From: Escherichia phage EK010
Reading direction: 5' to 3' (one strand)
Sequence record: NC_070981.1
Length of the DNA: 64,000 nt
In this document: piece after piece, positions 6,777-37,595 of the stretch
How positions within the stretch are numbered: position 1 is the stretch's first letter
Layout: the number at the start of each line of letters is the position of its first letter
Notes under the pieces: generated by a model
Database searches by the model: none
What the model was told of the DNA's origin: nothing
The model's input: the letters and a program-made list of their open reading frames with translations, nothing else
Made by a program: the position numbers and the translations under genes

Positions 6777-6800
6777 AAGAGTCTTTACGAGGATTCTTAA

Positions 6801-7803: not shown

Positions 7804-7963
7804 GTTTACCACTGGTAACACTGTTCGCCTTGTTGGCGGTACTCAAACAGGTGTTATTCGTCGGAGAACAACGATTGATGGTGTTCTCTGTTATCTTGTT
7901 CAGTGGAATGGTGAATCTTCTCCTTCCTTCGAACGTCGTACTGATTTGGTGTTAATCAAATGA
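7787..7963 (+). CDS. hypothetical small protein
   Basis: Internal ATG of track ORF 7634-7963 with GAGGAAACAGAGG SD. Confidence 0.4.
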   Translation: MRSKVKFTTGNTVRLVGGTQTGVIRRRTTIDGVLCYLVQWNGESSPSFERRTDLVLIK

Positions 7964-8190: not shown

Positions 8191-8499
8191 ATGATAAATC
8201 TTAATATCCGTAGAGGTTTTTACCCTAAAGTCTCTTTCCGTGCTCAACTGGAGCAGCTTCCTGGTGTAACTTTCTTAGAGTTTACCTACAGCTGCGGTCG
8301 AGACAATCCCGGTTTCACTGTCACAATTGAATCTGGTTGGTTTAATATGACCATCATGCCAGAAGATGTTAACAATGCACTCCGTGGTATTAAGTCCGGC
8401 GGCCTAAACCTTTTAGCTCCCAAGGTGGGTGATGAACTTCTCACTGTGATTCGTAATGGTGTGGATAAAACAGCTAAGATGGTTGAAGCTCTTAAGTAA
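8191..8499 (+). CDS. hypothetical protein (102 aa)
   Basis: Track ORF. Confidence 0.55.
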   Translation: MINLNIRRGFYPKVSFRAQLEQLPGVTFLEFTYSCGRDNPGFTVTIESGWFNMTIMPEDVNNALRGIKSGGLNLLAPKVGDELLTVIRNGVDKTAKMVEALK

Positions 8500-8507
8500 C
8501 ATCGACT

Positions 8508-8580
8508 TATAGCCCTTGTGTTTATCAGAGGGCTATGTGAGGGTGTTCCTCAATTAACTATAATCTCAACGCCATATGGC
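8508..8580 (+). repeat. conserved intergenic hairpin element, copy 1 (TATAGCCCTTGTG..TATCAGAGGGCTATGTGAG ... CTCAA.TAAC)
   Basis: About 32/34 identical to copy at 13395; 8-bp inverted repeat ATAGCCCT/AGGGCTAT. Confidence 0.6.
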
Positions 8581-8728
8581 TCACCGCTAGGGCGAGACTT
8601 GTCTCAAACATCCGGTGATAGACTAAAACCTGTTAATTTTCGAACAGCTTTCCGATATGTAGGGGTATGTATCGGTTTGGGATAGAGAACAATCTAGGGG
8701 TAGAGAGTTCTCGACAGTTAGTACAAGC

Positions 8729-8762
8729 GGAAGCCTTAACGTGTAGGGCTTCCCTTTATATT
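8729..8762 (+). terminator. intrinsic terminator
   Basis: GGAAGCC/GGCTTCC stem followed by CTTTATATT. Confidence 0.45.
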
Positions 8763-8801
8763 AACTGGCAATCCTGCCTTCACCAACAAAGAGAGAACGA
8801 T

Positions 8802-8942
8802 ATGAAGAAGACAACCAAACGTATGAACCGTCCTGAGCGTATGGAAGCAGTGGCAAATGGTGCTCTGAAGATTGAGTCTGCCATGCTTCGTCTGACAACT
8901 AACATCCGTAAGCGTCAAGGTGATTGGTTCTACGGTGGATAA
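8802..8942 (+). CDS. hypothetical small protein (46 aa)
   Basis: ATG with AAGAGAGAA SD after terminator; track ORF 8667-8942 would span the terminator. Confidence 0.4.
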   Translation: MKKTTKRMNRPERMEAVANGALKIESAMLRLTTNIRKRQGDWFYGG

Positions 8943-9025
8943 TTAATAATGGGCTGCCCTTAGGGGTGGCCTTTGTTGTTTTAATTAAGGGACAACTCTT
9001 ACTTAAACTAACAAGAGAGGTTGTT

Positions 9026-9235
9026 ATGAACATTCGTTTAGTTCGTGAGCAAGATGGCAGACAGGTTGTGCTAGGTGAGATTATCCGTGCTGCACACAAC
9101 CTACTCCCTGAAAAAGATGAAACTGTCTGGGTTGATGGAGAGTATCGCCGAGTGTTGTCGGTTGTTAAGTCCTTTGAACCAAAGCGTAACAATGAAAAAG
9201 CTCTTACCTGCTGGTTTGAGGTTAATATTACATAA
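9026..9235 (+). CDS. hypothetical small protein
   Basis: Internal ATG of track ORF 8924-9235 with AGAGAGG SD. Confidence 0.45.
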   Translation: MNIRLVREQDGRQVVLGEIIRAAHNLLPEKDETVWVDGEYRRVLSVVKSFEPKRNNEKALTCWFEVNIT

Positions 9236-9244
9236 GGGGTTGAT

Positions 9245-9496
9245 ATGTTCAATCGTTTATTTGACCGTAAAGGTCGCACTGACATACTGATACCTTCTAT
9301 CGGTGTGCCAGCTAAGTTCGGTGAGATACGTGCTGGTGATTTCTTCATGGAATCAGGTCGTCTTCATCTGAAGATCAACCTTGAACACGCTGTTGAAATC
9401 CTTAGTGATGATAAGCCAATCATCGGCACTTCGGTGTACAGTGCAAACCATACTGTATTTGTTGTCAATGTTCAGATTGAGATTAAATCACCATGA
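9245..9496 (+). CDS. small protein, paralog family A
   Basis: Track ORF; FGEIRAGDFF ... LHLKI motifs. Confidence 0.5.
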   Translation: MFNRLFDRKGRTDILIPSIGVPAKFGEIRAGDFFMESGRLHLKINLEHAVEILSDDKPIIGTSVYSANHTVFVVNVQIEIKSP

Positions 9497-9750
9497 AGAC
9501 AAACTTCCGAGCAGCAGTTATTACTAAAGTAATAGCAGTTGGTGATGTAATGATGCAAGTTCCTCTGAACACTCGTTACATTGCCATTGACCGAATGGGT
9601 TATGTGTGGGCTTGGAAGTGGAAGCCTACTTACAATGAACTGTTCGACGAATACCAGTGCGCTGGGCCTTACATGCCAACGTTGGTTGGTGTGTATGAAG
9701 ACGGTCCTTGTCGTACTCCTCAGTTAATTGAACTACCGGCGTGTGCTTAG
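9493..9750 (+). CDS. hypothetical protein (85 aa)
   Basis: Track ORF. Confidence 0.5.
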   Translation: MKTNFRAAVITKVIAVGDVMMQVPLNTRYIAIDRMGYVWAWKWKPTYNELFDEYQCAGPYMPTLVGVYEDGPCRTPQLIELPACA

Positions 9751-9751
9751 T

Positions 9752-9916
9752 ATGATTAAATGGTTCAAGCGTCTTGTGCACCTGCATGATTGGGTAATCC
9801 TTGAAAAATATACGCTGAAGATTACTGACGATCACGGTGGGACAAAGCACAAAGGTCTTCGCTATATTATGCAGTGTAAAGTGTGTGGTCATGTTACCAA
9901 GCGTGACATGATCTAA
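9752..9916 (+). CDS. small CxxC protein, tandem paralog 1 (MIKWFKRL...)
   Basis: Internal ATG of track ORF 9728-9916; near-identical N-terminus to next gene. Confidence 0.5.
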   Translation: MIKWFKRLVHLHDWVILEKYTLKITDDHGGTKHKGLRYIMQCKVCGHVTKRDMI

Positions 9917-9925
9917 GGGATCATT

Positions 9926-10090
9926 ATGATTAAATGGTTCAAGCGTCTCTTTCATTTCCATGAGTGGGAAGATCTTTCTACTTATGAATTGACGATCACA
10001 AATAAACTTACTGACAGAGAGCGACAAGGGTTGCGTATCTACTCTCGCTGTAAAGTGTGTGGTCTGCACAAGAAAACAGATCTGATCTAA
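9926..10090 (+). CDS. small CxxC protein, tandem paralog 2 (MIKWFKRLFHFHEW...CKVCG)
   Basis: Hand-translated 54-aa ORF below track cut-off; paralogous to flanking genes. Confidence 0.5.
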   Translation: MIKWFKRLFHFHEWEDLSTYELTITNKLTDRERQGLRIYSRCKVCGLHKKTDLI

Positions 10091-10317: not shown

Positions 10318-10395
10318 GCACCCTTAGCTCAATTGGATTAGAGTAGCGACCTTCTAAGTCGTCGGTTACAGGTTCGAATCCTGTAGGGTGCACCA
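10318..10395 (+). tRNA. tRNA-Arg (anticodon UCU)
   Basis: Hand-folded cloverleaf: 7-bp acceptor stem GCACCCT/AGGGTGC, anticodon loop CUUCUAA, T-arm ACAGG-TTCGAAT-CCTGT, encoded CCA. Confidence 0.85.
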
Positions 10396-16346: not shown

Positions 16347-17145
16347 GCGCGCTTTCCTTATTGGCTCTGACCCTGAAATGTTTGTTCGTACTGCTTCCGG
16401 TATTATCACCTCTGTGGCTGGTAAGCTGGGCTGTTCTAAAGATAATAAAATTGATCTGGCTCCTGATGTTCGTCTTCAAGAAGACAACGTTCTGGCTGAG
16501 TTTGATATTAACCCACAGAAAGGGTTTGAAGCGTTTGATGATAATATTCAGCGTGGTATTGATCTGACTAACAAAGTTCTCAATGAACGTGGCATGGAGG
16601 CAGCACTTGGGATTAGCTCTCATGTGTTCACTTCAGAAGAACTTGAATCATTCCACCCGTCAGCTTTTGTATTTGGCTGTACTCCTGATTTCAATGCCTT
16701 CACTGGACAAAAGAACCCTTCACCAGTCGCAACCGATAAGGGTTTGCGTACTGCTGGGGGTCATGTGCACCTTGGTGTCTCCGGGACTTTAGAGATTACT
16801 CGACAAACTCAAATGATGTTGGGTGTGTTGTGTGATTACTTCCTGTCCTTGCCAGCTGTGATCATGGATAAAGACACTCGTCGTAAAGAGTTGTACGGAA
16901 AGGCTTCTGCCATTCGCTACAAAGATTACGGTATTGAATATCGTTCTCTTTCTAACTTCTGGATTGGTGATAAGTCCACTCGCAAGTTTGTTTATGAGCA
17001 AGTGGATAAGGTTGTTCAGGGTTGTGATATGGAAGTGTTGATGTCACTTCACTCTCGCCTTCCAATTGAAAAGCTTCATAACATCATCAACAGCAACGAT
17101 GTTAAAGAAGCGGATAAATTCTCCTCTAAACTCCAGATTGTATAA
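16339..17145 (+). CDS. amidoligase-like protein (GSDPE ... GGHVHLG motifs)
   Basis: Internal ATG of track ORF 16294-17145; HxH motif and pattern similar to 17778 gene. Confidence 0.45.
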   Translation: MTKRAFLIGSDPEMFVRTASGIITSVAGKLGCSKDNKIDLAPDVRLQEDNVLAEFDINPQKGFEAFDDNIQRGIDLTNKVLNERGMEAALGISSHVFTSEELESFHPSAFVFGCTPDFNAFTGQKNPSPVATDKGLRTAGGHVHLGVSGTLEITRQTQMMLGVLCDYFLSLPAVIMDKDTRRKELYGKASAIRYKDYGIEYRSLSNFWIGDKSTRKFVYEQVDKVVQGCDMEVLMSLHSRLPIEKLHNIINSNDVKEADKFSSKLQIV

Positions 17146-17154
17146 GGTGATATT

Positions 17155-17781
17155 ATGAGCTTGTTAAGAGATTTTCAACACTATTATTGTGGAACATGGA
17201 TTGCTCAGCGATCACCTGATGGTAAAAACCTCCCTCTATATGTGCTTGATGTTCGTCAGCAAGGTAACTTTGATATCGACGACTACTCACACGACGCTGA
17301 AATGTCTTTAGTGTTTGAGGCGGAACGCTGGACTAAAAACTCTGAAGGTCAGTTTGAACGTCAGATTGTTAGTAATATCCCAGTGTTTGATCACAGCCTC
17401 ATTCTAGAGTCTCCAGATGTAGGATACCTTCAGCATGGTAATAACATGGTGAGCTGGACCCATATCAACCCTGTTCGTCAGCGAGCTAAAGGCTTGATGG
17501 GGAATAAACTTCGTGGTGCTGCACCTTCTCTCGGACGTTCGATTCCGGGTGATTTGGTGTACAACTTGTTTAATCCAGAGTTTGAAGGGTTGGTTACTCG
17601 TTTCATCTATATCAACCCTGTCGATGGAAAAGTGTATTACAAAGGGGCTTACGTTGGAAACGTGCTTCTTGAAGCTGGCTATGGCGACAACGGTCGCCAA
17701 TCTTTAAACCTTCTGGAGAAGTTCAAGCATATTTCTTCAGACCTGTCATCATATAATGTAGAGTTGGTGGAATCATTATGA
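17155..17781 (+). CDS. hypothetical protein (208 aa)
   Basis: Track ORF. Confidence 0.6.
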   Translation: MSLLRDFQHYYCGTWIAQRSPDGKNLPLYVLDVRQQGNFDIDDYSHDAEMSLVFEAERWTKNSEGQFERQIVSNIPVFDHSLILESPDVGYLQHGNNMVSWTHINPVRQRAKGLMGNKLRGAAPSLGRSIPGDLVYNLFNPEFEGLVTRFIYINPVDGKVYYKGAYVGNVLLEAGYGDNGRQSLNLLEKFKHISSDLSSYNVELVESL

Positions 17782-18878
17782 CAACCGTAGCACAAGTTTT
17801 TGGATACCGTAACCCTCGCTTATCTGAACCACATCCAAGTATTGCTTTTCAGTGTGGTGTAGGTATTGAGTTAGAAGTCGAAGGTACAATTGACATTGAC
17901 GCTGATATGTGGGTTTGTACTGAAGATGGCTCTCTTCGTGATGGTTGTGAATTAGTGTGTGCACGACCTTACAACGGTGAAGAATTACTTCGTGCTATTA
18001 ACAATCTGAGTGAAGCAGTACAGGACTCTGGAGCCGAGGGAACTTGGCGCTGCTCCACTCACGTTCATATGGATATGCGGGACGCTGATAGTAATATCCT
18101 TAAGAAAGTTATTCTTGGGTGGACGTTCTATGAAAAGATGATGTTCAAATGTTCTGGATATCATCGTTACCGTAGTAACTTCTGCCCAGCTTTTGCTGTT
18201 GTTCAAGCTCAAGTTATGAATGCTTCATCAGCGTTCAACCGAGATGGGGAAGATTTCTTCCGTACTCTTGTTAATAGCTGGGACAAGTATACCTCCCTTA
18301 ACCTGTTGCCTCTATCTCAGTTTGGTTCTGTTGAGTTTCGTATTTCAGAGCCGAAGTGGAAAAAGAGTCAGCTGCTAAATCTGGTCAATCGCTTCTTGGT
18401 TCTCAAGAAACTGGCTGTTGAATATGCAGATTTAGATAATGAAGCTTATGTTGAGAAGTTGAATGAGCTGCGCTTCGCTCCTATGATTCAACATCTACCT
18501 CTAGACTATACTCCAAGAGATAGCGATCTCACTGAAGGGTATCGTCTTGCCCGTGATATTCTGTTCTGTCGTGAGCAATCTGTAACTTTGGTTGGTCGTG
18601 TTCGTGTGCAACAGACTGGCCCTGATGGTGAAGTCCTTATCAACTTACGTGATATGAATGACTTCTATGGTTTCTTGGGATATGTGCGCGGTAATGCCAA
18701 CACTGTCTATGAAGAGATCATGACCTACTACACTCCTCAGATTGAAAGCACTCGAATCGCAACGGTTCGTGAAATTCGTCACATGTTTGCATTGATGCGT
18801 GAATCAGGTAGCAGTGATAATAACATCACTGATTACATTCCAGACCATCTGGAAATGCAATTAGAACGACTGCTGTAA
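17778..18878 (+). CDS. putative amidoligase (GS/GCS-like, Amidoligase_2-type)
   Basis: GVGIELEVEG and STHVHMD motifs; sits next to a GATase and an AIG2-like gene. Confidence 0.55.
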   Translation: MTTVAQVFGYRNPRLSEPHPSIAFQCGVGIELEVEGTIDIDADMWVCTEDGSLRDGCELVCARPYNGEELLRAINNLSEAVQDSGAEGTWRCSTHVHMDMRDADSNILKKVILGWTFYEKMMFKCSGYHRYRSNFCPAFAVVQAQVMNASSAFNRDGEDFFRTLVNSWDKYTSLNLLPLSQFGSVEFRISEPKWKKSQLLNLVNRFLVLKKLAVEYADLDNEAYVEKLNELRFAPMIQHLPLDYTPRDSDLTEGYRLARDILFCREQSVTLVGRVRVQQTGPDGEVLINLRDMNDFYGFLGYVRGNANTVYEEIMTYYTPQIESTRIATVREIRHMFALMRESGSSDNNITDYIPDHLEMQLERLL

Positions 18879-18955
18879 CACAATGGGCGCTCTGATAAAG
18901 GGCGCATTTAAAGGTTAATTAGATGAAAGGGTTTACCCTTCAGGTGGATTAGAAA

Positions 18956-20989
18956 ATTTGTGGTATCGTATTAGCTGGCGGCAACATGACCTCAACAGAT
19001 TTGGATATTTTCAACCAACTTCTGTATGCTGGTGTTTTCCGGGGACAGCACTCAACTGGTGTGTTTGGTCAGCGTAAAGGTGAAAAGCAAGTCTTCTCTT
19101 ATAAAGAAGCTCTTCCTTCTTATGCTTTTATGCTCCAGACAGAATATACAAATATTACCAAAGGGCTTACGAACTACGTGGTTCCTCCTTCGTGGATTGT
19201 TGGTCACAGCCGACATGCCACTCGTGGGGCTGTCAATGCTCGAAATGCTCACCCATTTACTCACGGGGATATTACTCTGGTTCATAATGGAACCCTGTTA
19301 GATCAAGATCTCCTTCCTGACAGTAAGCGTTTCGAAGTTGATAGTGAAAACATCTGCCACTCAATTAATACCATTGGAGCAGCAGAGACTATCCAAAAAC
19401 TGGATGGTGCATTCACTTTAATCTGGCATGACGCCAAAGATAACACGCTTCACATTATCCGTAATGATGAGCGTCCTTTCCACCTAGCCCGTTGTGGTTT
19501 AGATTGGTTTGGGGCTTCTGAAGAAGCTATGCTTATGTGGATTTTAGAGCGTTCTAAATCCCACAAGAACCGTATCAATGACCACTTCGAGTGTAAAGTG
19601 GGAACTGAGTATATCTTTGATGTGTCTAACAGTCGTATGACTCTGGTTCAAGAGGTGGAGCACAAGCTTCCGGTTTTTACGGTAACGAGTCGCTGGGGCG
19701 GCTATTACTCGAACTCCTCTCTATATCAGAACCAACAGACAAACAAATCAAGCAGCAGCACAAGCGACATTTACGGAAACAAAGACGACAAGCCCGGCGT
19801 GACAAGCGGAGACATTCGTCGTCGTAAAGCGATTGAAGACCAGAACAAACTGGCTGCCGATCGTGGTCTTCCTTATCGTCGTGATGGTCGTGTGGATATT
19901 ATTCCTCACGAGTTCCATGCTTATAACAACACAGATCGTGGTAAGATGGTTGGTTACATCTACGACGATAAAGCCCAAGAGTATGTCGAAGGGGATGTTC
20001 ACAACGTAGCCAAAGATGAATATCTTAAGGCTCTTGAAAACCCAAAGGTAGTATATCGCGGGACGATTGCTTGTATCTCCGAAGTGGACAGTATGATTCG
20101 CCTCGTACTAACTTCAGGGCTGTTTGTTGATGCTACAGATAAGGAGCCTCAAAGCACTACTGCTGATTTTGATGATGATATCCCTTTTGATGCAGAGGAC
20201 TCCTTCATCACTAAAAATGGTGTAGAAGTCACTCGTAAGTTCTGGGAATCTCACTCTCATGGTGATTGTGGTGGTTGTGATAAGCACATTGACTGGAAAG
20301 ATGCTCGTAAGGCTGTGTTTGCTTATCAAGCATACTGGCATCCAGAATGCTTCGAAGCGTTATCTAAAACCTCTGAAGATGAAGAAGATGTGCCTTTGGG
20401 TGTATGTGCTATCTGTGGTGAAGTCAAGACTGATTTCGAGTTTGACAACGAAATGAGTAAACTTCGTGGTGAAGACGTTTGTTATATCTGCTCCAAAGAA
20501 ATCAAAGATAAAGTAAAGAATGTTACTCTATCTGAAGGTTATATTTGGACTAAAGCAGTAGACACAACCAACCCACGTCGTCCTGAAGTAGCTGTTCGTG
20601 TTGATGAACGTATGCTTAGCCGTATGATCGTAATGGTTAGCTCAGCAAAACGTTCAGGGGATATCACACTTGCAGATGTTCCTAATTCGTATTTGGAAAA
20701 ACGTGGTGGTGATACTTATGCCATCTCTGTTTATGGTCCAAAGAATGCCCCAAAGGAGGTACCCGCTGAGAAAGCGGAGACATTTCCAGAAAAGTCAACC
20801 TCTCTCCGAAAAACAGTTGTCAGTTACGATGGACAACGAACAGCTGAGTTTACAAAAGCCCTCTGGACTTCAATTGGGTTTTGTGCAGTCTGTTATAAAC
20901 AAATTCCGTGGCGTGATGCAGAAACTTGCTCACTAAACAAAGAAAATAGAGTGATCTGTAATTCAGATTACTGTAAAGGTAAACACTAA
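18956..20989 (+). CDS. class-II (Ntn) glutamine amidotransferase with Cys-rich C-terminal extension
   Basis: CGIVLAGG...LQ-like RGQHSTGV...HSRHATRG...NAHPF motifs; Cys nucleophile lies 9 codons upstream of the first ATG (18986), implying ATT start at ~18956 after AGGTGG SD. Confidence 0.8.
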   Translation: MCGIVLAGGNMTSTDLDIFNQLLYAGVFRGQHSTGVFGQRKGEKQVFSYKEALPSYAFMLQTEYTNITKGLTNYVVPPSWIVGHSRHATRGAVNARNAHPFTHGDITLVHNGTLLDQDLLPDSKRFEVDSENICHSINTIGAAETIQKLDGAFTLIWHDAKDNTLHIIRNDERPFHLARCGLDWFGASEEAMLMWILERSKSHKNRINDHFECKVGTEYIFDVSNSRMTLVQEVEHKLPVFTVTSRWGGYYSNSSLYQNQQTNKSSSSTSDIYGNKDDKPGVTSGDIRRRKAIEDQNKLAADRGLPYRRDGRVDIIPHEFHAYNNTDRGKMVGYIYDDKAQEYVEGDVHNVAKDEYLKALENPKVVYRGTIACISEVDSMIRLVLTSGLFVDATDKEPQSTTADFDDDIPFDAEDSFITKNGVEVTRKFWESHSHGDCGGCDKHIDWKDARKAVFAYQAYWHPECFEALSKTSEDEEDVPLGVCAICGEVKTDFEFDNEMSKLRGEDVCYICSKEIKDKVKNVTLSEGYIWTKAVDTTNPRRPEVAVRVDERMLSRMIVMVSSAKRSGDITLADVPNSYLEKRGGDTYAISVYGPKNAPKEVPAEKAETFPEKSTSLRKTVVSYDGQRTAEFTKALWTSIGFCAVCYKQIPWRDAETCSLNKENRVICNSDYCKGKH

Positions 20990-21000
20990 GAGGTATAGTT

Positions 21001-21234
21001 ATGGAAGTTCGTAAACTGATGTTGGATAACGTGGTAACTACCCGTCGTATTCCGATGACAAGCACAGGATGTGATAACCTCCGAGCAATTCAGAAGTGGA
21101 TGCAAGAAGGTATTGGGAAGCTGGTTGACTCTCCAGTAGAAATCCCTTTTCCAACCGTCATTAATAACGTGTTGGCTGACTATGTTAAAATGAAGGGGAT
21201 TAAAGTTGAGCCTCATGTCAAGCAAGGGAGCTAA
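21001..21234 (+). CDS. hypothetical protein (77 aa)
   Basis: Track ORF. Confidence 0.5.
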   Translation: MEVRKLMLDNVVTTRRIPMTSTGCDNLRAIQKWMQEGIGKLVDSPVEIPFPTVINNVLADYVKMKGIKVEPHVKQGS

Positions 21235-21436
21235 GCCTCACCTGACAATGCTGGAGTATCAACAACTCCGACTTCAACAACTGGTAACGGAGCAGCGAAA
21301 GCTGTATCCGTTTGCTTTTAACCTAATTGATTCACCAAGCGATGACCAAGAAGACGAGATGTTCGCCAAGTATTGGGAAATCGAAGTTAAAATTCAATCC
21401 TGTCGTAACGAAATTCTTAAACTAAAAGGTATCTAA
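21206..21436 (+). CDS. hypothetical protein (76 aa)
   Basis: Track ORF; start uncertain. Confidence 0.45.
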   Translation: MSLMSSKGAKPHLTMLEYQQLRLQQLVTEQRKLYPFAFNLIDSPSDDQEDEMFAKYWEIEVKIQSCRNEILKLKGI

Positions 21437-21438
21437 AA

Positions 21439-22674
21439 ATGACTACTCGTATCCGTGTTCTTCCGTATGGCCCTTCTGATTCTGTTAACGCTCTGGTAAC
21501 TGCCATTAACGATACTATCCGTGATGAACGTATCAACGCTAACATAATGGGTCTTCTTTCAGAGAACAGTCGCTGGCGTTCTCGTGAGGGTGATGTGGTT
21601 GTGAACTACGGGAACCGTCGCTATCCTGAATCCTTCTTTGGTTCTGCAACTGTCCTTAACCGTACCGCAGCCTTACATATGGCAGCGAACAAACGTCGTG
21701 CTTTCAGCGTGATGGACCAAGCAGGTGTTAAAACTGTTGAGTATACAGATGTTCAAGAGATTGCTCAGGAGTGGTCAAACTCTGGCAACATTGTGTATGA
21801 ACGTCATGAACTGACTGGTCACTCTGGTTCGGGTATCGTTGTTGTTGAGCCTCGTGATTCAATTGGTCAAGCTGAACTGTACACCAAAGGTATTCAAGGT
21901 CCACGTCGTGAATGGCGTGTCCATGTGTTCAAAGGTGTTATCACCTATGTTCAGAAGAAGATTCGTCGTAACGGCTATCGTGAAGACCCTAACTATCGTG
22001 AAGATGTTCGTAACCATCACACTGGTTGGGTTTACTCAAGTTCCTTCACAGACGCTCCAAATGATGCATCTCTGATCAACGCAGTGAAAGCTGTTGAATC
22101 AATGGGTCTGGATTTCGGTGCAGTTGATATCATCACCAAAGGTCAAGAAGCGTGGGTACTGGAAGTTAATACAGCACCGGGCCTGACTGGTACAACTCTG
22201 GATACCTACCGTCATAACATTCTTGAGTTTGTTAAAGCTCAAAACCCTCTCTATACCCCTCAGTATAAAGTGGTTTACCAGACTCCGATTGAAGATGGAG
22301 ACGGTGAGTTGGTGGATGATATTGAAAGTGCTGATGATGAAAACTTTGCACTGGAAGGACAAGTAGCACAGCCGATTGATTCAGTTGATGTGGTTCCTGA
22401 AGAAATGCAACTGGAAGGTCAGATGAATACTCAAACTATTCGTAATGCACCTACTGGCTACACTTTGTCTCGTGGCTACTGGATTGCAAATATCCGTCAT
22501 GTCCACAACAACCTGCAACCGAATGCAATGTCTGCCAATGTCATCCTGTTCTGTGATGGTCGTAACTTCTACCGCAGTGGTTGGAACGTTCCGGTCAATC
22601 CAGTCCAGATTCATAACCCTCGCAAGTTAGAGTCTGTCAATGTTGAAGGTAGCGAAGTAGCAGTAACTCTGTAA
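21439..22674 (+). CDS. ATP-grasp family ligase
   Basis: GHSGSGIVVV, EWRVHVF, WVLEVNTAPGLTG motifs. Confidence 0.7.
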   Translation: MTTRIRVLPYGPSDSVNALVTAINDTIRDERINANIMGLLSENSRWRSREGDVVVNYGNRRYPESFFGSATVLNRTAALHMAANKRRAFSVMDQAGVKTVEYTDVQEIAQEWSNSGNIVYERHELTGHSGSGIVVVEPRDSIGQAELYTKGIQGPRREWRVHVFKGVITYVQKKIRRNGYREDPNYREDVRNHHTGWVYSSSFTDAPNDASLINAVKAVESMGLDFGAVDIITKGQEAWVLEVNTAPGLTGTTLDTYRHNILEFVKAQNPLYTPQYKVVYQTPIEDGDGELVDDIESADDENFALEGQVAQPIDSVDVVPEEMQLEGQMNTQTIRNAPTGYTLSRGYWIANIRHVHNNLQPNAMSANVILFCDGRNFYRSGWNVPVNPVQIHNPRKLESVNVEGSEVAVTL

Positions 22675-22705
22675 TTAAATTAAATTAAACAAAAAGGAAT
22701 TTGTA

Positions 22706-22948
22706 ATGTTGTCTATCGAAGATTTGATCAGCCGTGGAATGACCGAAGAAAAAGAGCCTCTGATTGTAGGCTCTCGTAAAGCTATCAACCAACTCTGTGA
22801 AGAGTTCGGAATCACAAATAAGAGAATGATTGGTAATCAGTTCTCTGCAATCATCACCTTCCTCAAACGAGGTGATAAATATTCAATGGAATGTGCTGAG
22901 CGTATCATCGCAATTGCACAAGCAGATAAGGGAGTAACAAATCTATGA
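22706..22948 (+). CDS. hypothetical protein (80 aa)
   Basis: Track ORF. Confidence 0.5.
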   Translation: MLSIEDLISRGMTEEKEPLIVGSRKAINQLCEEFGITNKRMIGNQFSAIITFLKRGDKYSMECAERIIAIAQADKGVTNL

Positions 22949-23130
22949 ATAAATACACAATCATGTTTCGTACAATGTCAGCAGAAGGAAATATTCAATC
23001 TCTGGACATTCAAGCAGATCGCTTTGAATCACTTGGAACAAGTGTTAACTTCTTCCGAGGTACAGAGCTAGTGGGTACATTCCAATCTGATGTGTTGACT
23101 GGTGTGATCAAACACTTCGAAGTAGAATAA
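22945..23130 (+). CDS. hypothetical protein (61 aa)
   Basis: Track ORF. Confidence 0.45.
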   Translation: MNKYTIMFRTMSAEGNIQSLDIQADRFESLGTSVNFFRGTELVGTFQSDVLTGVIKHFEVE

Positions 23131-23189
23131 TTTGCTTTAGCCTCTTCGAAAGAGGGGGCTAGTTCGAATTTAGCTTACAAAGGAGTTTT

Positions 23190-23726
23190 ATGGAATGGAG
23201 AGAACTTCCCGGATATGAGGGACAGTATTCAATCTCTGATAAAGGGGATATCCGTAGTAATTACCGATGGTATCTTAACCCTAAGACACTAACACGCCAT
23301 AAGAAAGATCGTGAATTGATTATGACACCCAATGTTGGTTCAGCGGGTTATGCTCGAATCAAATTAAGTGATCAGATTTTTCATCCGTATCACAGATTGG
23401 TAGCTATTGTTTGGGTAAGCAATCCAGAAAACAAACCTTTCATCAACCATAAAGATGGAAACAAACTGAACAACAACCCTTCTAATCTAGAATGGGTTAC
23501 TTGTCAGGAAAACAATATACATGCATATCAGACAGGTTTAAACTCTGGTATGCTAAGAGCAGAAACCCTTTCACATGTGTGGAATTTTATATCTCCCGAA
23601 GGGGTTCAAACCGAAATCACTAACCTTTGTAAATATTGTAGAGAGAATGATTTATCTAAGTCCTCTATGATAGCAGTACACAAAGGAACTCAATATCAAC
23701 ATAAGGGTTGGAAAAGAAATGAGTAA
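23190..23726 (+). CDS. HNH homing endonuclease (NUMOD4-like N-terminus)
   Basis: WRELPGYEGQYSISDKGDIRS and NHKDGNKLNNNPSNLEWVTCQENNIHA motifs. Confidence 0.8.
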   Translation: MEWRELPGYEGQYSISDKGDIRSNYRWYLNPKTLTRHKKDRELIMTPNVGSAGYARIKLSDQIFHPYHRLVAIVWVSNPENKPFINHKDGNKLNNNPSNLEWVTCQENNIHAYQTGLNSGMLRAETLSHVWNFISPEGVQTEITNLCKYCRENDLSKSSMIAVHKGTQYQHKGWKRNE

Positions 23727-24153
23727 TGAGAAAGTTTTAGTAGCAACTTACGGCAGCTTGAGAAAAGGTCAACACAACCACGCTATCAATGCTCGTGCAG
23801 GTGGTGTGTCTATCGGTGAAGGGTGGACAGTAAACAACTGTAACCTGTATCAGTATTGCACAGCATACTTCCCAAGTGTATCTCTGGTGCATAACAGCAA
23901 TGGTAAGCCTGTTCGTGTAGAGGTCTTTGAGACAACCCAAGCTGGTCTGGAAGGCCCATATGACGGTCTGGAAGGTCACCGTGGCAATGATAACCCATAC
24001 ACCTTTTACAAACGTACATTGATCCCAGTATTATTGGACAGTGGTGAAACTGTGGAAGCGTGGATTTACCATATTGACGAAGAACAAGATGTTCTTGTTG
24101 AATCTGGTGACTGGACAGCATATCTGGCAGGTGAGAAGGATGACAGTAACTGA
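23719..24153 (+). CDS. gamma-glutamyl cyclotransferase (AIG2/GGCT)-like protein
   Basis: N-terminal VATYGSLRKG motif. Confidence 0.65.
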   Translation: MSNEKVLVATYGSLRKGQHNHAINARAGGVSIGEGWTVNNCNLYQYCTAYFPSVSLVHNSNGKPVRVEVFETTQAGLEGPYDGLEGHRGNDNPYTFYKRTLIPVLLDSGETVEAWIYHIDEEQDVLVESGDWTAYLAGEKDDSN

Positions 24154-24381: not shown

Positions 24382-26172
24382 ATGTCAAAGATCATTTTGG
24401 GAGACACAGGCTGTAAAGAGTGTATCTCTCATGGTCGTGATAAGACCCGCAATCACATGATTCTCTTCCGAAATGAAGAGTCCGGTGAGGAGTGGGGTTC
24501 ATGTAACAGATGTGGTGCGTATGAAATCTTCGAGAAAGGAACGACGCCCACTCCTAATGAAAAGAAAGAGCTGTCCCCTGAAGAACTCCGAGAAGTCTTA
24601 GACGATTGCTTAGAGCTTCCTCAGGGAGAGTTGACTCGTCGCTTAATTCCTAAAGCTGTATCTGAACGTTATGGATGCCGTATCGGTTTAAGCCAAACAG
24701 ATGGTCAAACTCCTGACAGCTACTTCTTCCCTCGTGAACGTGATGGGAACATTGTTGGATATGAAGTAAAACTTCTAGACAGCAAGAAGTTCTATTATGT
24801 AGGTAATGTGAAAGAAGCCGACTTGTTTGGTATGGCTCAAGCACAACGTGGTGACGTATACAACAAGAAACTCTTCATCTTTGAAGATCCTCTCTCTTGT
24901 ATGTCTGGGTTCCACGTACTTACCGCGTTTACAAACGCAACTAACATCAAACCTGCTTGCGTCTCTCTTCCGTTCGGTGCAGGTTCAATCTCTTCTGTAT
25001 TATCAAGAAACCGTGATTTTATTAATGGTTTCGAGGAGATTGTACTCTGCATGGACAATGATGATGCAGGTGAGATTGCTTTAACTAAGGGTCGTTCTCT
25101 GTACCCGCATGTTAAGTTTGCAAGGATTCCAAAAGGTACGTTCACTTATAACGGACAAGAAAAGGAAATCAAAGATGCAAACGACATGTTACTTGCAGGG
25201 AGAGGTCAAGAGCTTTTCAACAATCTGAAATATTCAGCTAAGCGGGAATCTCCTGCTGGAGCTGTTACAGTTTTTGATTGCCTCGAAGATGCTCTGAAGA
25301 AAGCGGAATGGGGTATCCCTTATCCGTGGAAAACTCTCAATGACATGACCTTTGGTATTCGTTGGGGAGAGATGGTTGCAATCGGTGGTGGTGTTGGTTC
25401 AGGTAAAACCTTAATCGCACATGAACTGGTAGCATGGCTTTGCCTTGAGCACGGTTTTAATGGTGGTGGCTTCTTCTTGGAAGAGAAGGTAGGCATGTCT
25501 GTTAAGAACATTGCAGGTAAATCCGCATCCATCCCATTCCACCGACCAGATGTTGAGTATGAAGAAAGTCAGCTACGAGATGAAGCACTTCGATACGCTG
25601 ATAAGTTTTTCTTGTACGACAACTTTGGGCAGAATGAGTGGGAAGACATTAAGCAGTGTATTCGCTTTTGGGTAGTTGAGAATCAGTGTAAATTTATCAT
25701 TCTTGATAACATCACTGCATTGGTATCTCACTTAACTCCGTCTGAGGTAAATACAGAAATCAGCAAGATTGCTTCAGAGCTTGCTGGTATGTGTAAGGAA
25801 CTGGACTTCACTGCTTTTGTGTTATCTCACTTGAATGCTCCGGCGGGCGGTGCCCCTCACGAAGAAGGTGGTCAGGTTAAAGAAGTACAGTTTACTGGCT
25901 CACGTTCATTAATGCGCTGGTGTCAATGTATTATCGGTTTCGAACGTAATAAACAAGCGGATGGGTTAGGTAAAAACTTGTCAATCATACGTCTGCTCAA
26001 AGAACGTAACTACGGACAGACAGGGGTTTGCTATACCAAATACATTAACGAAACAGGTCGTCTTGTGGAACGAGAAGATCATGAAGTTGATGAAGATAAT
26101 CCGTTTACAGTCACCAATGGAGAAGATGCAGCTTCCTTACTTTCACAAGAAGGGGAGGCACGTCCATGGTAA
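24382..26172 (+). CDS. DNA primase/helicase (T7 gp4-like)
   Basis: N-terminal Cys4 zinc ribbon, Walker [10 protein letters not shown], Walker B FIILDNIT. Confidence 0.85.
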
Positions 26173-26714
26173 AGAAACTGTATGCGTTTGATATTGAAGG
26201 TGATAACCTCTATGACGGTATTCAGAATGTCTGGTGTATATGGATATTTGATGTACTGTCTGGAGAACGGTGGGGGTATCGCCCTCACCAAATTGAAGAA
26301 GCACTACACAAACTGAAAGAAGCTGATGTAGTAATAGGTCACAATATTATTGATTTTGACCTTCCTGCTTTGTTTAAATTCTACTCTCATGTGATACCTT
26401 TTCGTTTTAATGTCTTTGATACCCTGTGCCTGAGTCGATACCTCAAGCCTGATCGTATTGGTGACAGTCCAGAATACCCCAAAGGCGACCCTAGACATGG
26501 ACCTCGCGGTCATGGCCTCAAGCAATGGGGCGAATTTCTGGGAGAGCTGAAGGGTGATTATGGCGAACAGGAAGAAGCATGGGATGCATTCACTGAAGAC
26601 ATGTTCACATATTGTGAGCAAGACGTTAACTTGACAGTTAAGGTTTACATGTGTCTTTGTCAAATGGCAGGATTTGATTATAAGAATCCCCCATCTCTCA
26701 ACTGGAAAATGTAG
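26166..26714 (+). CDS. DnaQ-like 3'-5' exonuclease (separately encoded proofreading domain)
   Basis: Exo I FDIEGD, Exo [13 protein letters not shown], Exo [11 protein letters not shown]. Confidence 0.8.
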
Positions 26715-26716: not shown

Positions 26717-28177
26717 ATGATTAAGATTCCATTATCTGAATTGAACCTTCAAGAAGGAGAAGCCCTCAGTGTAGGGCTTGACCTGATTCGTAATTTGATC
26801 AGAGATAACGTAGTCCCTGATGGTATCTATCCTGTTATTGCAGGTGGTGCTATCCGTGATACGTTCTTCCAAAATCGAACTCCGAATGATGTTGATATCT
26901 TCCTAGTTCAAGGAGGGCTTCGTTGGAACACTCGCCAGGAAAATAGCCCTGCTAACGTAGGTAATGCTGCACTGTTCCTTGACAACTTCTTATCTTGGAC
27001 AGAAAGTAAGGGGCTTCAGGTTACATCTCGCCTAGTTCAGCCTGTTAACGGGACAACCTATGCTGAAGCGCTTTTCACTTTCCAAGAGATTCTGGAAATT
27101 GAGATTGATCAAGTGAAGATTCAGATGATGATTAATCTCCCTCTGGATATGGATACTTTGAGTCGTCGCTTTCCTATGATCTGTCAAGGGTTTATGACTC
27201 TTGGTGATTTGTATGTGTCAAACGAAGGTTTGTTTGCAATGTCATACACTCGTGACATTCCTGTGGTATCTAGTCGTGAAATGAAGTATGTTCACAAGAA
27301 GTGGCCTGAAGCAACTGTTGCAGTTTATAGCAGTTCTACCGAATATATGCACCTTGCAATGGGAGCTTTCGGTGAGCCAGAAGTTCACCTGATTAGTGAT
27401 TTAGTTGGACCTATGGCTGGTGTAAATTTATATCAGAATCAGCGTCGTCATTATACCCTGAAGATGATGGAAACTATATTAAACATTCCTCAGGAAAGGG
27501 GTCGTAGCTATCTGGACGAGGAAGTTAACCTACAGACAGAATGGTCTAGTGGATTAACCACTATAGGTGCTGAAGCAATTACGCAGCCTTGGACTCCGGG
27601 AACTAACAGACGAGATCTTCAAGCTTTTAATGAAGAAACTTCTCGAACTGTTCGAGGAGGTGTTGTAGGGTATAACGTACAACCTCATGAAAGACCTCGT
27701 GACACTTTTACTGGCAGTTTTGGTAGTGCACACTCTTCTGGAATGGATACTCGTACATGGCATGTCCAAGGAGGAACTGCTCGTCCTATTCCTTCTCCGT
27801 CAATGGATGATTTGCAGCGTTCTCGTCGTTCATGGGAAACAGTAAGCTCTGTTGTTCAGGGTCTACGTGCTAGTGATGTAGAACGTGTAGAAGTTGGCGA
27901 TGTGCTGGAAGATGGATTGCTGGCGATAGCGGCTCGTGAAGCTGCTCGTACTGGCTTTGCATCTTTAGCTAATGATGCTAACGAAGCTCCTCGCCCTCGC
28001 CGTCGTAGCGGTTTAGCTCACTCTAACACTGAACTAGGTTCAGAACTCCGATCTGCTGCTCGTGAGCTATCTGGTGAGCTTCACAACAACCTAGCAGGTG
28101 TTACACTATCTCGTGAAACAGCTCGTAATATGATTAATAATTTGGCATCATCTGTACAAGGAAACAGAAACTCATGA
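26717..28177 (+). CDS. Pol-beta superfamily nucleotidyltransferase (tRNA-NT/poly(A) polymerase head-like) with R/S-rich C-terminal tail
   Basis: IAGGAIRDTFF...DVDIF matches GGxVRD...DxD head motif. Confidence 0.5.
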   Translation: MIKIPLSELNLQEGEALSVGLDLIRNLIRDNVVPDGIYPVIAGGAIRDTFFQNRTPNDVDIFLVQGGLRWNTRQENSPANVGNAALFLDNFLSWTESKGLQVTSRLVQPVNGTTYAEALFTFQEILEIEIDQVKIQMMINLPLDMDTLSRRFPMICQGFMTLGDLYVSNEGLFAMSYTRDIPVVSSREMKYVHKKWPEATVAVYSSSTEYMHLAMGAFGEPEVHLISDLVGPMAGVNLYQNQRRHYTLKMMETILNIPQERGRSYLDEEVNLQTEWSSGLTTIGAEAITQPWTPGTNRRDLQAFNEETSRTVRGGVVGYNVQPHERPRDTFTGSFGSAHSSGMDTRTWHVQGGTARPIPSPSMDDLQRSRRSWETVSSVVQGLRASDVERVEVGDVLEDGLLAIAAREAARTGFASLANDANEAPRPRRRSGLAHSNTELGSELRSAARELSGELHNNLAGVTLSRETARNMINNLASSVQGNRNS

Positions 28178-28707
28178 GTCTTTTAGGTTCTCAAGAATTA
28201 CACAGCGTTATTGATAGTGGCTTTTTAGATGCGGAGCATAAATATGTTAACGCTGCTAGTGTGGATATCCGTATTGGTGATACTATCCTTGTTGAAGAAC
28301 AGGCTGATGGTATTGTTGACATTGATGCTAAAGAAAACCTCAAGTGGAAAGAAGTGAAAATCCCTGAAGATGGCATTGTCATTACTCCGGGACAGTTCTT
28401 CTTAGCTCACTCTATGGAAGAATTTAACCTTCCAGATAACATCTCAAGCCTGTTTGTACTCCGCTCCTCGATGGCTCGTTGTGGTTTGAACCACCTACAT
28501 GCTGGTTGGGCTGATGCAGGGTTTAACAGCAGTAAGCTAACCTTTGAGTTCCATAACGTTACCCACAATCACAGCTTACGAGTTCGTGCTGGGATGCGTG
28601 TTGGTCAAATGGTTATGTTTGAACACTCTCACGCTGGTGATGATTCCTATGCAGTGAAGGGTCGTTACAATGGCAGCAATGGTGTAGTTGCTTCTAAAGG
28701 TGTATAA
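28174..28707 (+). CDS. dcd: dCTP deaminase family protein
   Basis: SSMARCGL...GWADAGF...LTFEFHN motifs of dCTP deaminase/dUTPase fold. Confidence 0.8.
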   Translation: MSLLGSQELHSVIDSGFLDAEHKYVNAASVDIRIGDTILVEEQADGIVDIDAKENLKWKEVKIPEDGIVITPGQFFLAHSMEEFNLPDNISSLFVLRSSMARCGLNHLHAGWADAGFNSSKLTFEFHNVTHNHSLRVRAGMRVGQMVMFEHSHAGDDSYAVKGRYNGSNGVVASKGV

Positions 28708-28923
28708 TTGATGGAGTTTGGAACAATGAAAAGACGTTGGGTAGTTCGTGTTCACTGGAGCAGTGGTGCAGAGTCAATGGGTATTAGAAACACCCGTCAA
28801 GAAGCTCGCGCTCATAAGAAGTTCTTGTTAAGTTGTGAAAGCACAATTAATAAGATCACTATCCACAAAGCTCAAGACTTTAAATCAGGTCGTTTCTATA
28901 TCAGCGGAAAGGTACATTACTAA
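28708..28923 (+). CDS. small protein, paralog family B (WxVxVxW ... TRQEAR ... KVHY)
   Basis: Track ORF; 4 paralogs in window. Confidence 0.5.
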   Translation: MMEFGTMKRRWVVRVHWSSGAESMGIRNTRQEARAHKKFLLSCESTINKITIHKAQDFKSGRFYISGKVHY

Positions 28924-29129
28924 TGGCTAGATTATGGGCAGTTCGCGTTAAATGGGCTAACAAAGACCTTGGTGGTGATTGTATTAAATTATTCGACACT
29001 CGACAAGAAGCTCGTCTTGCTAAGAAAGCTACAAAAGCTTTAGGTCTCGCTGAAAAAGTAGAGATTCATCGTTGGTTTCAAAATGACAATAACAGTGCAG
29101 GATCCTTGACTAGCAAGGTTCATTACTAG
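28923..29129 (+). CDS. small protein, paralog family B
   Basis: Track ORF. Confidence 0.5.
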   Translation: MARLWAVRVKWANKDLGGDCIKLFDTRQEARLAKKATKALGLAEKVEIHRWFQNDNNSAGSLTSKVHY

Positions 29130-30786: not shown

Positions 30787-30999
30787 ATGTCCGAATGTAA
30801 ATGGGCTTTACAAGTAAATTGGGGTGGTAATAGAAGTGACATTGCCGCCACTATCTCGTTACAACGAACCCGTGAAGCTGCTCGTACACTTCGTCGTATG
30901 TTTATCAGTGGTGGTCAGAAACCATGTGATGTTAAAATCTACAAAGTTAAACATACCAACGGTGTTATGCAAATTGACACCAACGTAAATTATCGCTGA
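30787..30999 (+). CDS. small protein, paralog family B
   Basis: Track ORF. Confidence 0.5.
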   Translation: MSECKWALQVNWGGNRSDIAATISLQRTREAARTLRRMFISGGQKPCDVKIYKVKHTNGVMQIDTNVNYR

Positions 31000-35747: not shown

Positions 35748-37595
35748 GTGATGGATAACCCTGATAAGTTACCTTTCATAACGGAGATGACAGTCGCTGA
35801 TATAATCTCAAAACAAGCGAAGCATGGAGTCAACTTCAACAGAAGAAACGCTCGGTGGTTTGTTCACCTTCTCAAAGAGATTATTGTCAATATTGATAAA
35901 GAACTGATTCCTCTCCTCCCCAAAATGCGGGTGGATGGTTCAACTTATGCTAAGCCTTTTAAGAAATCAGGTGCTTTACAGAAGTGGCCTCAACTCTATT
36001 GTGATAGGGTTGGTCTTAAAAGAGAAGATATCGGTGGGGCGTTTACTTGCGTTGAGTATGTAGACTTTGACCCATCAAAAGATGCACGTATCAAAGAAGC
36101 CTTGATGGATGAAGGTTTTATACCTCCAGAGTGGAATTATTCTAAGAAACCTTGGAATACTTTTGAAATTCGTAAAGCTATGAAGAAGTATGGTACATAC
36201 TCTGCATGGTATTCTGCTTGGATTCGAGGTAACGCTAAAGAGAAACAGACAGCAGAGATGATAGATGCTGATATCCGAAGGTTTTTGGATAAGCACTTCC
36301 GTTATCACACTGTCAACTATATGAAAGCCTATGTCAGCGGTTTAGGTCTTAACCCTAACAGGAAGAAGCCTGTAACCTTTGATGAAATCAAAAAAGCTTT
36401 GGCTACATCAAACAAGTGGCCTACAGCCCCTACAAACCTTGAGGAGACTCTTGAAGAGGGGCTTGGGGGTGAGCTAGGGGGTGTAGGAAGTTTGCTTAAG
36501 AGACGCGTTGTAGCGGCTCACAGGCTAGGTTTGATTAGCGGGCTTATCGACAAGGAACGTAAAGATGGTAAGTTGTCCGCCGAAGCTAATAGCTGCGCTA
36601 CTCCGACATTTCGTTTTAAACATCGCATTGTTGTTAATATTCCTTCTCGCGGTTTGTTTGGTCACGAGTGCCGCAGTCTTTTTCAATCTGACTATTCCTC
36701 AGACGATAGTCATAACCATCCTTTCATCATTACCAACCATATCCCTGATGGGTGTTACGTACGAAAGGGTACTAACATTATCTACGAAATGGGAAAACCG
36801 GGCAAGAAAGACAAACCAATAGGTGCTTATAAATTTTATGTACCTGCTGGTCGTGAAATCTTCTTAGGTTACGATGGCTCTGGTCTTGAGCTGAGGATGC
36901 TTGCTCATTACCTTATCAAAGAATGTCGTGAGATGCTCGCTGAAGCAGAGCAGGAAAACAACCCAGCTAAGAAACGAGAAGCTGAACGCGGTCTAGCTTC
37001 TGCTGTTATGTACAGAGATATTCTTTTAGAAGGAGATATTCACTCACACAACCAAAAACTTGCTGGCCTTCCTACTCGTGATAATGCTAAAACGTTTATC
37101 TACGCATTCAACTACGGAGCTGGTGACGCTAAGTTAGGAAGCATCGTAGGTGGTGGCTCTGATGAAGGGGCTGTCATGAGGGCAAGATTCTTAGCAGAGA
37201 ATCCTTGTATTGCAATTCTTATTGAACGTATGACAGAGAAAGCACAAAGTGGATACATCTACGGTGTGGATGGACGTCGTATTACAATGAGAAGGGATGC
37301 AACTGGAAAGGTTATGGTTCATAAAGCCTTAAACACCCTCTTACAGAGCGCTGGGGCGATTGTTATGAAGTATGCAATGCTATTCCTTAATAAATGGATT
37401 GAGCGTGATGGTGTTCGTTGTGCGAAGGTTATTGACATGCATGATGAAGGCCAGTTCACTGTACATCGTGACGATGTTAACAAACTTCGTACCCTCACTG
37501 AAGAGTGTGTTCGTAAAGCAGGTGAATACCTCAAAATGGAATGTCCTCTTGCATCTGATTGTAAGATTGGGTTAAACTGGAATCACACTCACTAA
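35748..37595 (+). CDS. family-A DNA polymerase, polymerase domain
   Basis: Motif A DGSGLELRMLAHY, motif B KTFIYAFNYGAG, motif C VIDMHDEGQF. Confidence 0.9.
   Translation: MMDNPDKLPFITEMTVADIISKQAKHGVNFNRRNARWFVHLLKEIIVNIDKELIPLLPKMRVDGSTYAKPFKKSGALQKWPQLYCDRVGLKREDIGGAFTCVEYVDFDPSKDARIKEALMDEGFIPPEWNYSKKPWNTFEIRKAMKKYGTYSAWYSAWIRGNAKEKQTAEMIDADIRRFLDKHFRYHTVNYMKAYVSGLGLNPNRKKPVTFDEIKKALATSNKWPTAPTNLEETLEEGLGGELGGVGSLLKRRVVAAHRLGLISGLIDKERKDGKLSAEANSCATPTFRFKHRIVVNIPSRGLFGHECRSLFQSDYSSDDSHNHPFIITNHIPDGCYVRKGTNIIYEMGKPGKKDKPIGAYKFYVPAGREIFLGYDGSGLELRMLAHYLIKECREMLAEAEQENNPAKKREAERGLASAVMYRDILLEGDIHSHNQKLAGLPTRDNAKTFIYAFNYGAGDAKLGSIVGGGSDEGAVMRARFLAENPCIAILIERMTEKAQSGYIYGVDGRRITMRRDATGKVMVHKALNTLLQSAGAIVMKYAMLFLNKWIERDGVRCAKVIDMHDEGQFTVHRDDVNKLRTLTEECVRKAGEYLKMECPLASDCKIGLNWNHTH

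Follow-up and report, generated by a model that had tools for sequence, protein, structure and literature searches.

A nucleotidyltransferase gene in the replication operon of Escherichia phage EK010: a likely Gad2-type phage enzyme, not a CCA-adding enzyme

The 64,000-nucleotide stretch of Escherichia phage EK010 analysed here (sequence record NC_070981.1; hereafter the window) contains an open reading frame (ORF) at 26717-28177 on the plus strand, with an ATG start and a stop codon, encoding a nucleotidyltransferase (NTase) of 486 amino acids. By sequence profile and modelled fold, this NTase very probably belongs to a phage-specific Gad2-type superfamily consisting of PF26128 and related PHROGs, and it is not a CCA-adding enzyme. 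The explanation that fits best overall, and that we hold as nearly but not quite probable, is a phage-specific, probably active Gad2-type enzyme with a disordered tail and a host-directed or counter-defence function. RefSeq and PHROGs already give the protein the name 'nucleotidyltransferase', and the locus was pointed out in the BASEL paper (PMC11990801). New here are the explicit exclusion of CCA-enzyme membership, the placement of a subfamily without PF26128 annotation in the Gad2-type superfamily, an Asp-to-Pro change at a motif-B-like position, a pattern of insertion plus hyperdivergence, and the description of the tail as a translated, weakly constrained disordered region.

The ORF matched PHROG 12715 ('nucleotidyltransferase') over its full length, with residues 1-479 aligned to profile positions 1-456/457 (E 6.3e-154). 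Its N-terminal NTase domain comprises residues 1-270 (26717-27526), of which approximately residues 1-215 form the conserved core. In the N-terminal model the core had a pLDDT of 80-95, and the helices at residues 240-266 were of low to moderate confidence. Motif A of the domain, IAGGAIRDTFFQNRTPNDVDIF, occupies residues 41-62 (26837-26902) and contains the G-G turn and the metal-binding Asp residues D58 and D60. The first-pass annotation had read a GGxVRD...DxD head signature in this protein, and that reading holds: GGAIRD lies at residues 43-48 and DVD at 58-60. The pattern GG..RD.{7,11}D.D occurred once across the six frames of the window, at NTase motif A, and was found in 18 of 200,000 shuffles of the NTase protein. 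G43, G44, R47, D48, D58 and D60 are invariant among family members only about 30% identical, and the G-G turn and D58/D60 are invariant also across the wider superfamily. Because of this invariance and of the alignment of the family profile to solved CCA-adding enzymes (given below), motif A is not a chance string. The Pol-beta pattern hG[GS] x9-13 Dh[DE]h was also present (G43-G44, 13 residues, D58-V-D60), and the head fold and motif A together bear out the assignment to the Pol-beta superfamily.

Four further blocks of the domain are conserved. The beta-strand FQEILEIEI (residues 122-130; 27080-27106) was predicted in both models; it includes E127, which at least 90% of the family share and which is a probable candidate for the third carboxylate. 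The strand IQMMIN (residues 135-140; 27119-27136) carries Q136, a hallmark of the superfamily, with Gln in this column in 85-100% of every subgroup, Gad2 included. The segment F-P-M-I-C (residues 152-156; 27170-27184) is a putative motif-B counterpart with Pro153 in place of Asp. Aligned by eye, it probably corresponds to motif B of the class II enzymes (RRDFTIN) and to FDFTVC in Gad2; F152 and C156 are conserved superfamily-wide, and position 153 is Asp in Gad2 (100%) and in small phage NTases (90%) and Pro in the Gordonclarkvirinae clade. The block YVHKKWP (residues 191-197; 27287-27307), a basic helix end, is the most conserved clade-specific motif, with Y191, H193, K194, K195, W196 and P197 invariant or nearly so, and it aligns to RVQKYxDKGY of Gad2.

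The NTase domain is probably catalytically active, since G43, G44, D58 and D60 are invariant at about 30% identity and the ratio of nonsynonymous to synonymous substitution (dN/dS) of the domain is 0.09. A catalytically dead protein that retained the NTase fold as nothing more than a binding module is extremely unlikely. It would agree with the replacement by Pro of the motif-B-like Asp of the relatives and with the uncertain assignment of the third carboxylate, but the same invariance of the G-G turn and of both motif A Asp residues, the conservation of E127 and the low dN/dS speak against it.

Gad2 is a predicted NTase of 400 amino acids from SPbeta-like phages; deletion of Gad2 rendered SPbetaL7 sensitive to Gabija, a Gad2 homologue from Brevibacillus (B. 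laterosporus) blocked Gabija when supplied in trans, and expression of SPbetaL7 Gad2 in bacteria was toxic (bioRxiv 10.1101/2023.05.01.538930). Direct searches with the full window protein gave no match in Pfam, NCBIfam, PADLOC or PDB, and a word-indexed search for homologues of the single protein found only relatives of at least 83% identity. The family was widened by an alignment seeded from phage records and by running HMMER exhaustively. Searched with the family profile, HMMER returned 386 clusters, which include many phage proteins of 170-240 amino acids that consist of the head alone. We also collected Gad2 homologues, all listed ones of which carry PF26128, and aligned 25 of them. In hhalign, the Gordonclarkvirinae family matched this 25-sequence Gad2 alignment with a probability of 89.8% (E 1.8e-6) over 134 columns, corresponding to Gad2 residues 15-160. 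A second-round profile built from the Gad2 N-terminal domain gave 2e-6 for the phiEco32 type and about 2e-4 for the window type (nominal database 1e6); with this profile PcnB reached 0.57 and Cca had no score. Some intermediate small NTases matched both the Gad2 hidden Markov model (HMM) and the family HMM. Precomputed matches to PF26128, the Pfam entry named 'Gad2', were present on phiEco32-type orthologues and on the distant relatives P0081, P0112 and P0219, and our local Pfam scan gave no PF26128 match for any protein, known precomputed carriers included. Pairwise, the window NTase matched B. laterosporus Gad2 in motif A only.

Like Gad2, the window protein has a phage-encoded Pol-beta-type NTase core of about 150-200 residues with the superfamily signature AGG[AT][IV][RT][DS] ... 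DxD[IV][FY] ... Q ... F[DP]xxC. Within motif A, the Gordonclarkvirinae clade has the 'RD' of class II enzymes whereas Gad2 has 'TS'. The two also differ in setting: Gad2 belongs to a variable anti-defence locus of temperate phages, and the window NTase is fixed in the replication operon of virulent podoviruses.

The same domain is found in small 'PolyA_pol head' NTases of podoviruses (about 170-230 amino acids; PHROGs 1614, 10174, 4400 and 7967), for example in Pseudomonas phage LKD16, Pantoea phage LIMEzero and, as gp22, Pseudomonas putida phage Emajogi. The family profile matched these proteins with E values of 1e-13 to 1e-6 and gave cross-matches to their PHROGs, and a Foldseek search of BFVD (E 1e-8 to 1e-4) showed that podovirus 'nucleotidyltransferases' of LKD16, LIMEzero, PP2 and Ninurta share the fold. 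Like the window NTase, the small NTases often lie in replication modules. They are head-only and tail-less and keep the motif-B-like Asp, in contrast to the window NTase with its tail and Pro153. Several of them are above the Pfam PolyA_pol cut-off (P0112, 29 bits; P0120, 25 bits), and the window protein is below it. Emajogi gp22 adjoins a primase/helicase gene, is cytotoxic when overexpressed, and has relatives some of which are annotated as Gad2-family.

The likeness to class II tRNA nucleotidyltransferases and poly(A) polymerase I (PF01743) is confined to the head. Structural comparison of the N-terminal model gave its best value, 11.0, with E. coli poly(A) polymerase, followed by the CCA-adding enzymes of T. 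maritima (10.6), human (10.1) and B. stearothermophilus (10.0). Values for TENT5 (8.2), CdnE (7.9) and TUTases, polymerase X, OAS and MenT (about 6.5-7.7) were lower. Foldseek agreed in giving class II CCA-adding enzymes as the best fold matches; identity to class II enzymes in the structural alignments was 11-15%. Motif A is nearly letter-identical between the two groups: the family profile IaGGAvRDavlqnrephDiDI aligned to IVGGAVRDLLL-GKTPHDVDV of a solved CCA enzyme, and NTase motif A aligned to motif A of 6ibp, 4x4w and 1ou5. These model matches and the profile alignment show that the first-pass domain call was right at the level of the head.

Beyond the head the agreement ends. E. coli Cca has GGAVRD at 7, DRD at 21, RRD at 90, EDPLR at 130 and ERVWKE at 175. 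The Asp of class II motif B is linked to ribose recognition, and motif D is the protein template that chooses C and A. None of the class II motifs B (RRD), D (EDxxR) and E (ERxxxE) was found in the conserved domain of the NTase, and EDxxR and ERxxxE had no match anywhere in the protein. Its sole RRD, at residue 298, was rejected as motif B; it lies inside the variable tail and is deleted in the close relatives P0021 and P0022. The models contained none of the helical neck, body and tail domains of class II enzymes; the head is followed by a short alpha/beta region (145-230) and then by disorder. Pfam PF01743 (PolyA_pol) did not match the full-length NTase; residues 1-285 scored 12.1 bits (E 0.25) against a gathering threshold of 23, and the best orthologue scored 19.1 bits. 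The family HMM did not match E. coli Cca or PcnB even with speed filters off, and hhalign of the family with Cca aligned only 56 columns, around motif A. A domain assignment to a different nucleotidyltransferase subfamily had been named beforehand as the result that would refute the first-pass proposal, and the domain searches assigned the protein to the phage-specific Gad2-type group.

The first-pass annotation had proposed that the enzyme repairs tRNA 3' ends. In this role it would restore the CCA ends of host or phage tRNAs after damage by an acceptor-end nuclease, and the class II CCA/poly(A)-type motif A and the CCA-adding enzymes among the best fold matches agree with it. The phage also has its own tRNA, as that annotation had said: a tRNA-Arg(TCT) gene at 10318-10395 (plus strand). 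However, this gene already encodes a 3' ACCA end, and a Cca is available from the host itself. The NTase has none of motifs B, D and E, all of which E. coli Cca possesses, and the neck, body and tail, a PF01743 score above cut-off and a match of the family HMM to Cca or PcnB are likewise lacking. A universal tRNA end as substrate would also make unexpected the sequence divergence described below, of 32-39% identity beside neighbours of 92-94%. Repair of tRNA ends is therefore not borne out, and we consider it very unlikely. Motif A alone is not sufficient for annotating genes of this kind as CCA-adding or tRNA-repair enzymes.

The second line of evidence comes from the gene's setting and its divergence. 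Escherichia phage E20-1 (OP293233.1) is 100% identical to the window, the NTase ORF included, and the close relatives SU7, ECBP2 and Bas86-88 are phiEco32-like podoviruses of the subfamily Gordonclarkvirinae. The NTase gene is part of a tightly packed string on the plus strand, which begins with a primase/helicase gene (24382-26172; PHROG 239, E 5e-175) and continues with the 3'-5' exonuclease subunit of a family A DNA polymerase (26166-26714; Pfam DNA_pol_A_exo1, PHROG 'DNA polymerase exonuclease subunit'), the NTase and a dCTP deaminase (28174-28707; Pfam DCD, E 1e-34). The position between exonuclease and dCTP deaminase genes was thus as first described. The stop codon of the exonuclease subunit lies 2 nt ahead of the NTase ATG, and the NTase stop codon overlaps the dCTP deaminase ATG as ATGA.

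Phage records with a primase/helicase of at least 80% identity numbered 95, and those with the NTase 96, so the NTase is fixed, and always syntenic, in essentially all E. coli Gordonclarkvirinae. Comparing the window with phiEco32, EP335 and Bas93, amino-acid identity was 93-94% for the primase/helicase, 92-93% for the dCTP deaminase and 80% for the exonuclease subunit, against 32-39% for the NTase domain and about 25% for the NTase tail. The drop in identity was sharply bounded by the ends of the NTase gene, which thus stands alone as hyper-divergent within a replication operon otherwise conserved at 92-94%. Among 10 genomes of the SU7 group, dN/dS was 0.03-0.04 for the three neighbouring genes and 0.09 for the NTase domain. 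Within an allele class the domain is under constraint, and between classes it is deeply split. In Cronobacter phage A24, a more distant carrier of the module, the primase/helicase, exonuclease subunit and dCTP deaminase genes follow in the same order with no NTase in between, and PaP3, likewise more distant, also has no NTase. From these two phages, the gene looks like a lineage-specific insertion into the replication operon rather than a part of the replication machinery.

The C-terminal tail (residues 272-486; 27530-28174) is predicted to be disordered, is enriched in Arg, Ser, Ala and Gly, and is variable. AlphaFold pLDDT was below 50 from residue 272 to the C-terminus. Residues 286-486 contain 11.9% Arg, 10.9% Ser, 10.0% Ala and 9.0% Gly, and no Lys or Cys; the net charge is 0, with 24 Arg and no Lys against 24 Asp plus Glu. 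Entropy in sequence windows was 3.2-3.7 bits in the tail and 3.5-4.0 bits in the N-terminal part. Of the long Arg/Ser-rich low-complexity tail first proposed, the biased composition and the disorder, over about 215 amino acids, stand, but the tail is only mildly low in complexity and is not net basic. The tail alone had no match in Pfam or PDB, and its identity to the tails of other genera is about 25%. In the 10 close genomes of the SU7 group its dN/dS was 0.31 and its alignment contained 39 gap columns, all in frame, from which we conclude that the tail is translated and weakly constrained. The long NTase frame is kept open through in-frame indels in 10/10 close genomes. The tails of four allele classes, which otherwise cannot be aligned, share short conserved islands, W[ST]xxL and [SE]FxxA, at residues 276-280 and 335-338 (about 27542-27556 and 27719-27730 of the window). 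These islands may act as short linear motifs for binding.

A counter-defence or host-directed role for the NTase is suggested by sequence comparison and by analogy with Gad2, and we put it forward as a tentative though substantial possibility. The reading is favoured because of the accessory origin of the gene, its extreme divergence between genera in a conserved context and its variable disordered tail, and because relatives are toxic and the sole characterised relative is an anti-defence enzyme. The catalytic motif is invariant while the rest diverges, a pattern that fits conflict with variable host factors better than housekeeping on an invariant substrate. The toxicity of SPbetaL7 Gad2 and Emajogi gp22 fits a host-directed activity, and a phage-only family with a member that disarms a defence nuclease makes counter-defence or host takeover likelier than tRNA repair. 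By analogy with the Gabija-neutralising Gad2, the NTase would transfer a nucleotide onto a host or nucleic-acid target early in infection and so weaken a host defence or subvert a host process. The acceptor is left wide in this proposal and could be a DNA end, an RNA 3' end, a protein or a small molecule, with the tail as a variable targeting or recruitment region.

Several observations weigh against this reading or against carrying Gad2's function over to the window protein. The Gordonclarkvirinae orthologues are known from computational comparison alone, and their similarity to Gad2 is limited to the NTase core of about 150 residues; the alignment of the full-length family profile to Gad2 was confined to residues 15-159. 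The Gad2-only HMM had no direct match to the window's subfamily, nor was there a precomputed PF26128 match on its members (P0001-P0022). Gad2 has a structured C-terminal part of about 240 residues (about 170-400), whereas the tail here is disordered and unrelated. The conserved Asp106 of Gad2 corresponds to Pro153 in the window NTase, and with Asp changed to Pro at this motif-B-like position the chemistry or the substrate may differ from that of Gad2. The mechanism of Gad2 itself was described as still not elucidated in a review of February 2026 (PMC12904381). Finally, anti-defence genes tend to be accessory, and the NTase is present in all of the approximately 95 E. coli Gordonclarkvirinae, as a gene of a replication operon with translational coupling. 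Our literature search turned up no paper on PF26128 and none that treats Gordonclarkvirinae together with Gabija.

The data indicate that essentially all phiEco32-like coliphages encode an enzyme whose core is related to that of Gad2. Growth of the members Bas86-93 on K-12 derivatives of E. coli opens the question of how Gad2 works to tests in a genetically tractable system. The gene also has a bearing on the unusual restriction resistance of Gordonclarkvirinae. If Gordonclarkvirinae NTases and Gad2 shared one hitherto undescribed counter-defence chemistry, it could be the nucleotidylation of phage DNA, at ends or bases, hiding it from nucleases that sense ends or read sequence, such as Gabija, OLD-family and restriction enzymes, with the variable tail determining which host or phage partner recruits the enzyme. 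We consider this improbable; if true, it would account for the reported restriction resistance and reveal how Gad2 works.

Template-independent tailing of RNA, or poisoning of tRNA, is another way in which a host-directed NTase could act. Like poly(A) polymerase I or MenT/AbiEii toxins, the enzyme would add nucleotides to host RNA 3' ends and so promote decay or block translation as a host shut-off. The toxicity of overexpressed relatives and the location of the gene in the early/middle region (PMC4281155) are in agreement with this. We nevertheless regard it as unlikely: no RNA-binding domain was detectable in the protein, the tail is net neutral rather than basic, the ribose-recognition Asp of motif B is replaced by Pro, and a generic RNA 3'-OH as substrate would not predict rapid divergence. 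MenT/AbiEii toxins, moreover, are bacterial rather than phage proteins; we found no specific sequence relationship between them and the window NTase, and no antitoxin partner.

Gordonclarkvirinae were reported to be remarkably resistant to restriction-modification, and the locus of dCTP deaminase and nucleotidyltransferase was pointed to as a suggested source of this resistance (PMC11990801). On that suggestion, the NTase would work with the adjacent dCTP deaminase in a pathway of DNA modification or of the nucleotide pool, in keeping with the overlap of the two genes. Base modification is a listed countermeasure to Gabija (PMC12904381), so this alternative could merge with the counter-defence reading. 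We judge it quite unlikely in itself. The module of Cronobacter phage A24 has the dCTP deaminase without the NTase, and with a thymidylate synthase also encoded by these phages, the deaminase has its usual part in supplying dTTP. A biosynthetic enzyme working on one fixed small molecule should not be the most divergent gene product of the module, and site avoidance can account for part of the restriction resistance: the window contains 3 CCWGG sites against about 93 expected, 129 GATC sites against about 282, and 618 6-bp palindromes against about 966. Twelve 6-bp palindromes, those of PstI and SalI among them, are absent from the window; 12 EcoRI, 26 EcoRV and 5 EcoKI sites remain.

The operon could also point to a replisome accessory, a terminal-transferase-like enzyme acting on phage DNA ends or primers and recruited through its disordered tail to the split polymerase of these phages. 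Translational coupling between exonuclease subunit and dCTP deaminase, 3' of the primase/helicase, the presence of the NTase in all E. coli Gordonclarkvirinae and the related small NTases in replication modules of other podoviruses all agree with such a role. It is improbable all the same, given that the modules of A24 and PaP3 work without the NTase, that the polymerase has a separate, complete gene, and that the NTase has diverged far more than every putative partner. That gene encodes a PolA polymerase domain of 615 amino acids (35748-37595, plus strand). Because the polymerase domain proper is encoded there, we rejected the idea that the NTase is the polymerase missing from the split-off exonuclease subunit. 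In this phage, family A DNA polymerase is divided between a 182-amino-acid 3'-5' exonuclease subunit gene and the polymerase-domain gene, the former lying about 9 kb upstream of the latter; annotations of phiEco32, PaP3 and Cronobacter phage A24 show a polymerase divided in the same way.

Consensus scans for promoters and terminators of the NTase gene gave fewer sites than shuffled sequence, and an own promoter or terminator was rejected as no consensus signal exceeded the shuffled background. A predicted promoter is annotated just upstream of the NTase gene in other records. A further gene hidden in the tail region was also rejected, the other frames holding ORFs of only 51-71 codons and the long NTase frame being open in all 10 close genomes.

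Just 3' of the dCTP deaminase gene are three small paralogous ORFs of 68-71 amino acids (28708-28923, 28923-29129 and 30787-30999, plus strand), which share the pattern W..V.W...TR.EAR...I[HY]K...V[HN]Y. Two of the three match PHROG 4939 (unknown function), and the third has no PHROG match. Upstream of the replication genes there is a cluster encoding a COOH-NH2 ligase, an amidoligase, a glutamine amidotransferase, a RimK-like 'S6 glutaminyl transferase' and a gamma-glutamyl cyclotransferase, which looks like a system modifying peptides or metabolites. The cluster was placed in the Bas87 sequence (2703-9987), corresponding by offset to roughly 16900-24150 of the window; its last member, the gamma-glutamyl cyclotransferase-like ORF, was located directly at 23719-24153. 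It is also present in PaP3 and partly in Cronobacter phage A24. The latter phage, which has no NTase, encodes an RNA ligase 2 (808-1776 in the A24 sequence), with a few genes between it and the primase/helicase further downstream.

GTP cyclohydrolase I catalyses the first step of 7-deazaguanine DNA-modification pathways in some phages. On a metagenomic contig (891-3187), the gene for the 218-amino-acid head-only Gad2-family NTase P0112 is followed immediately by those for an AAA_28 protein and a GTP cyclohydrolase I (PF02649).

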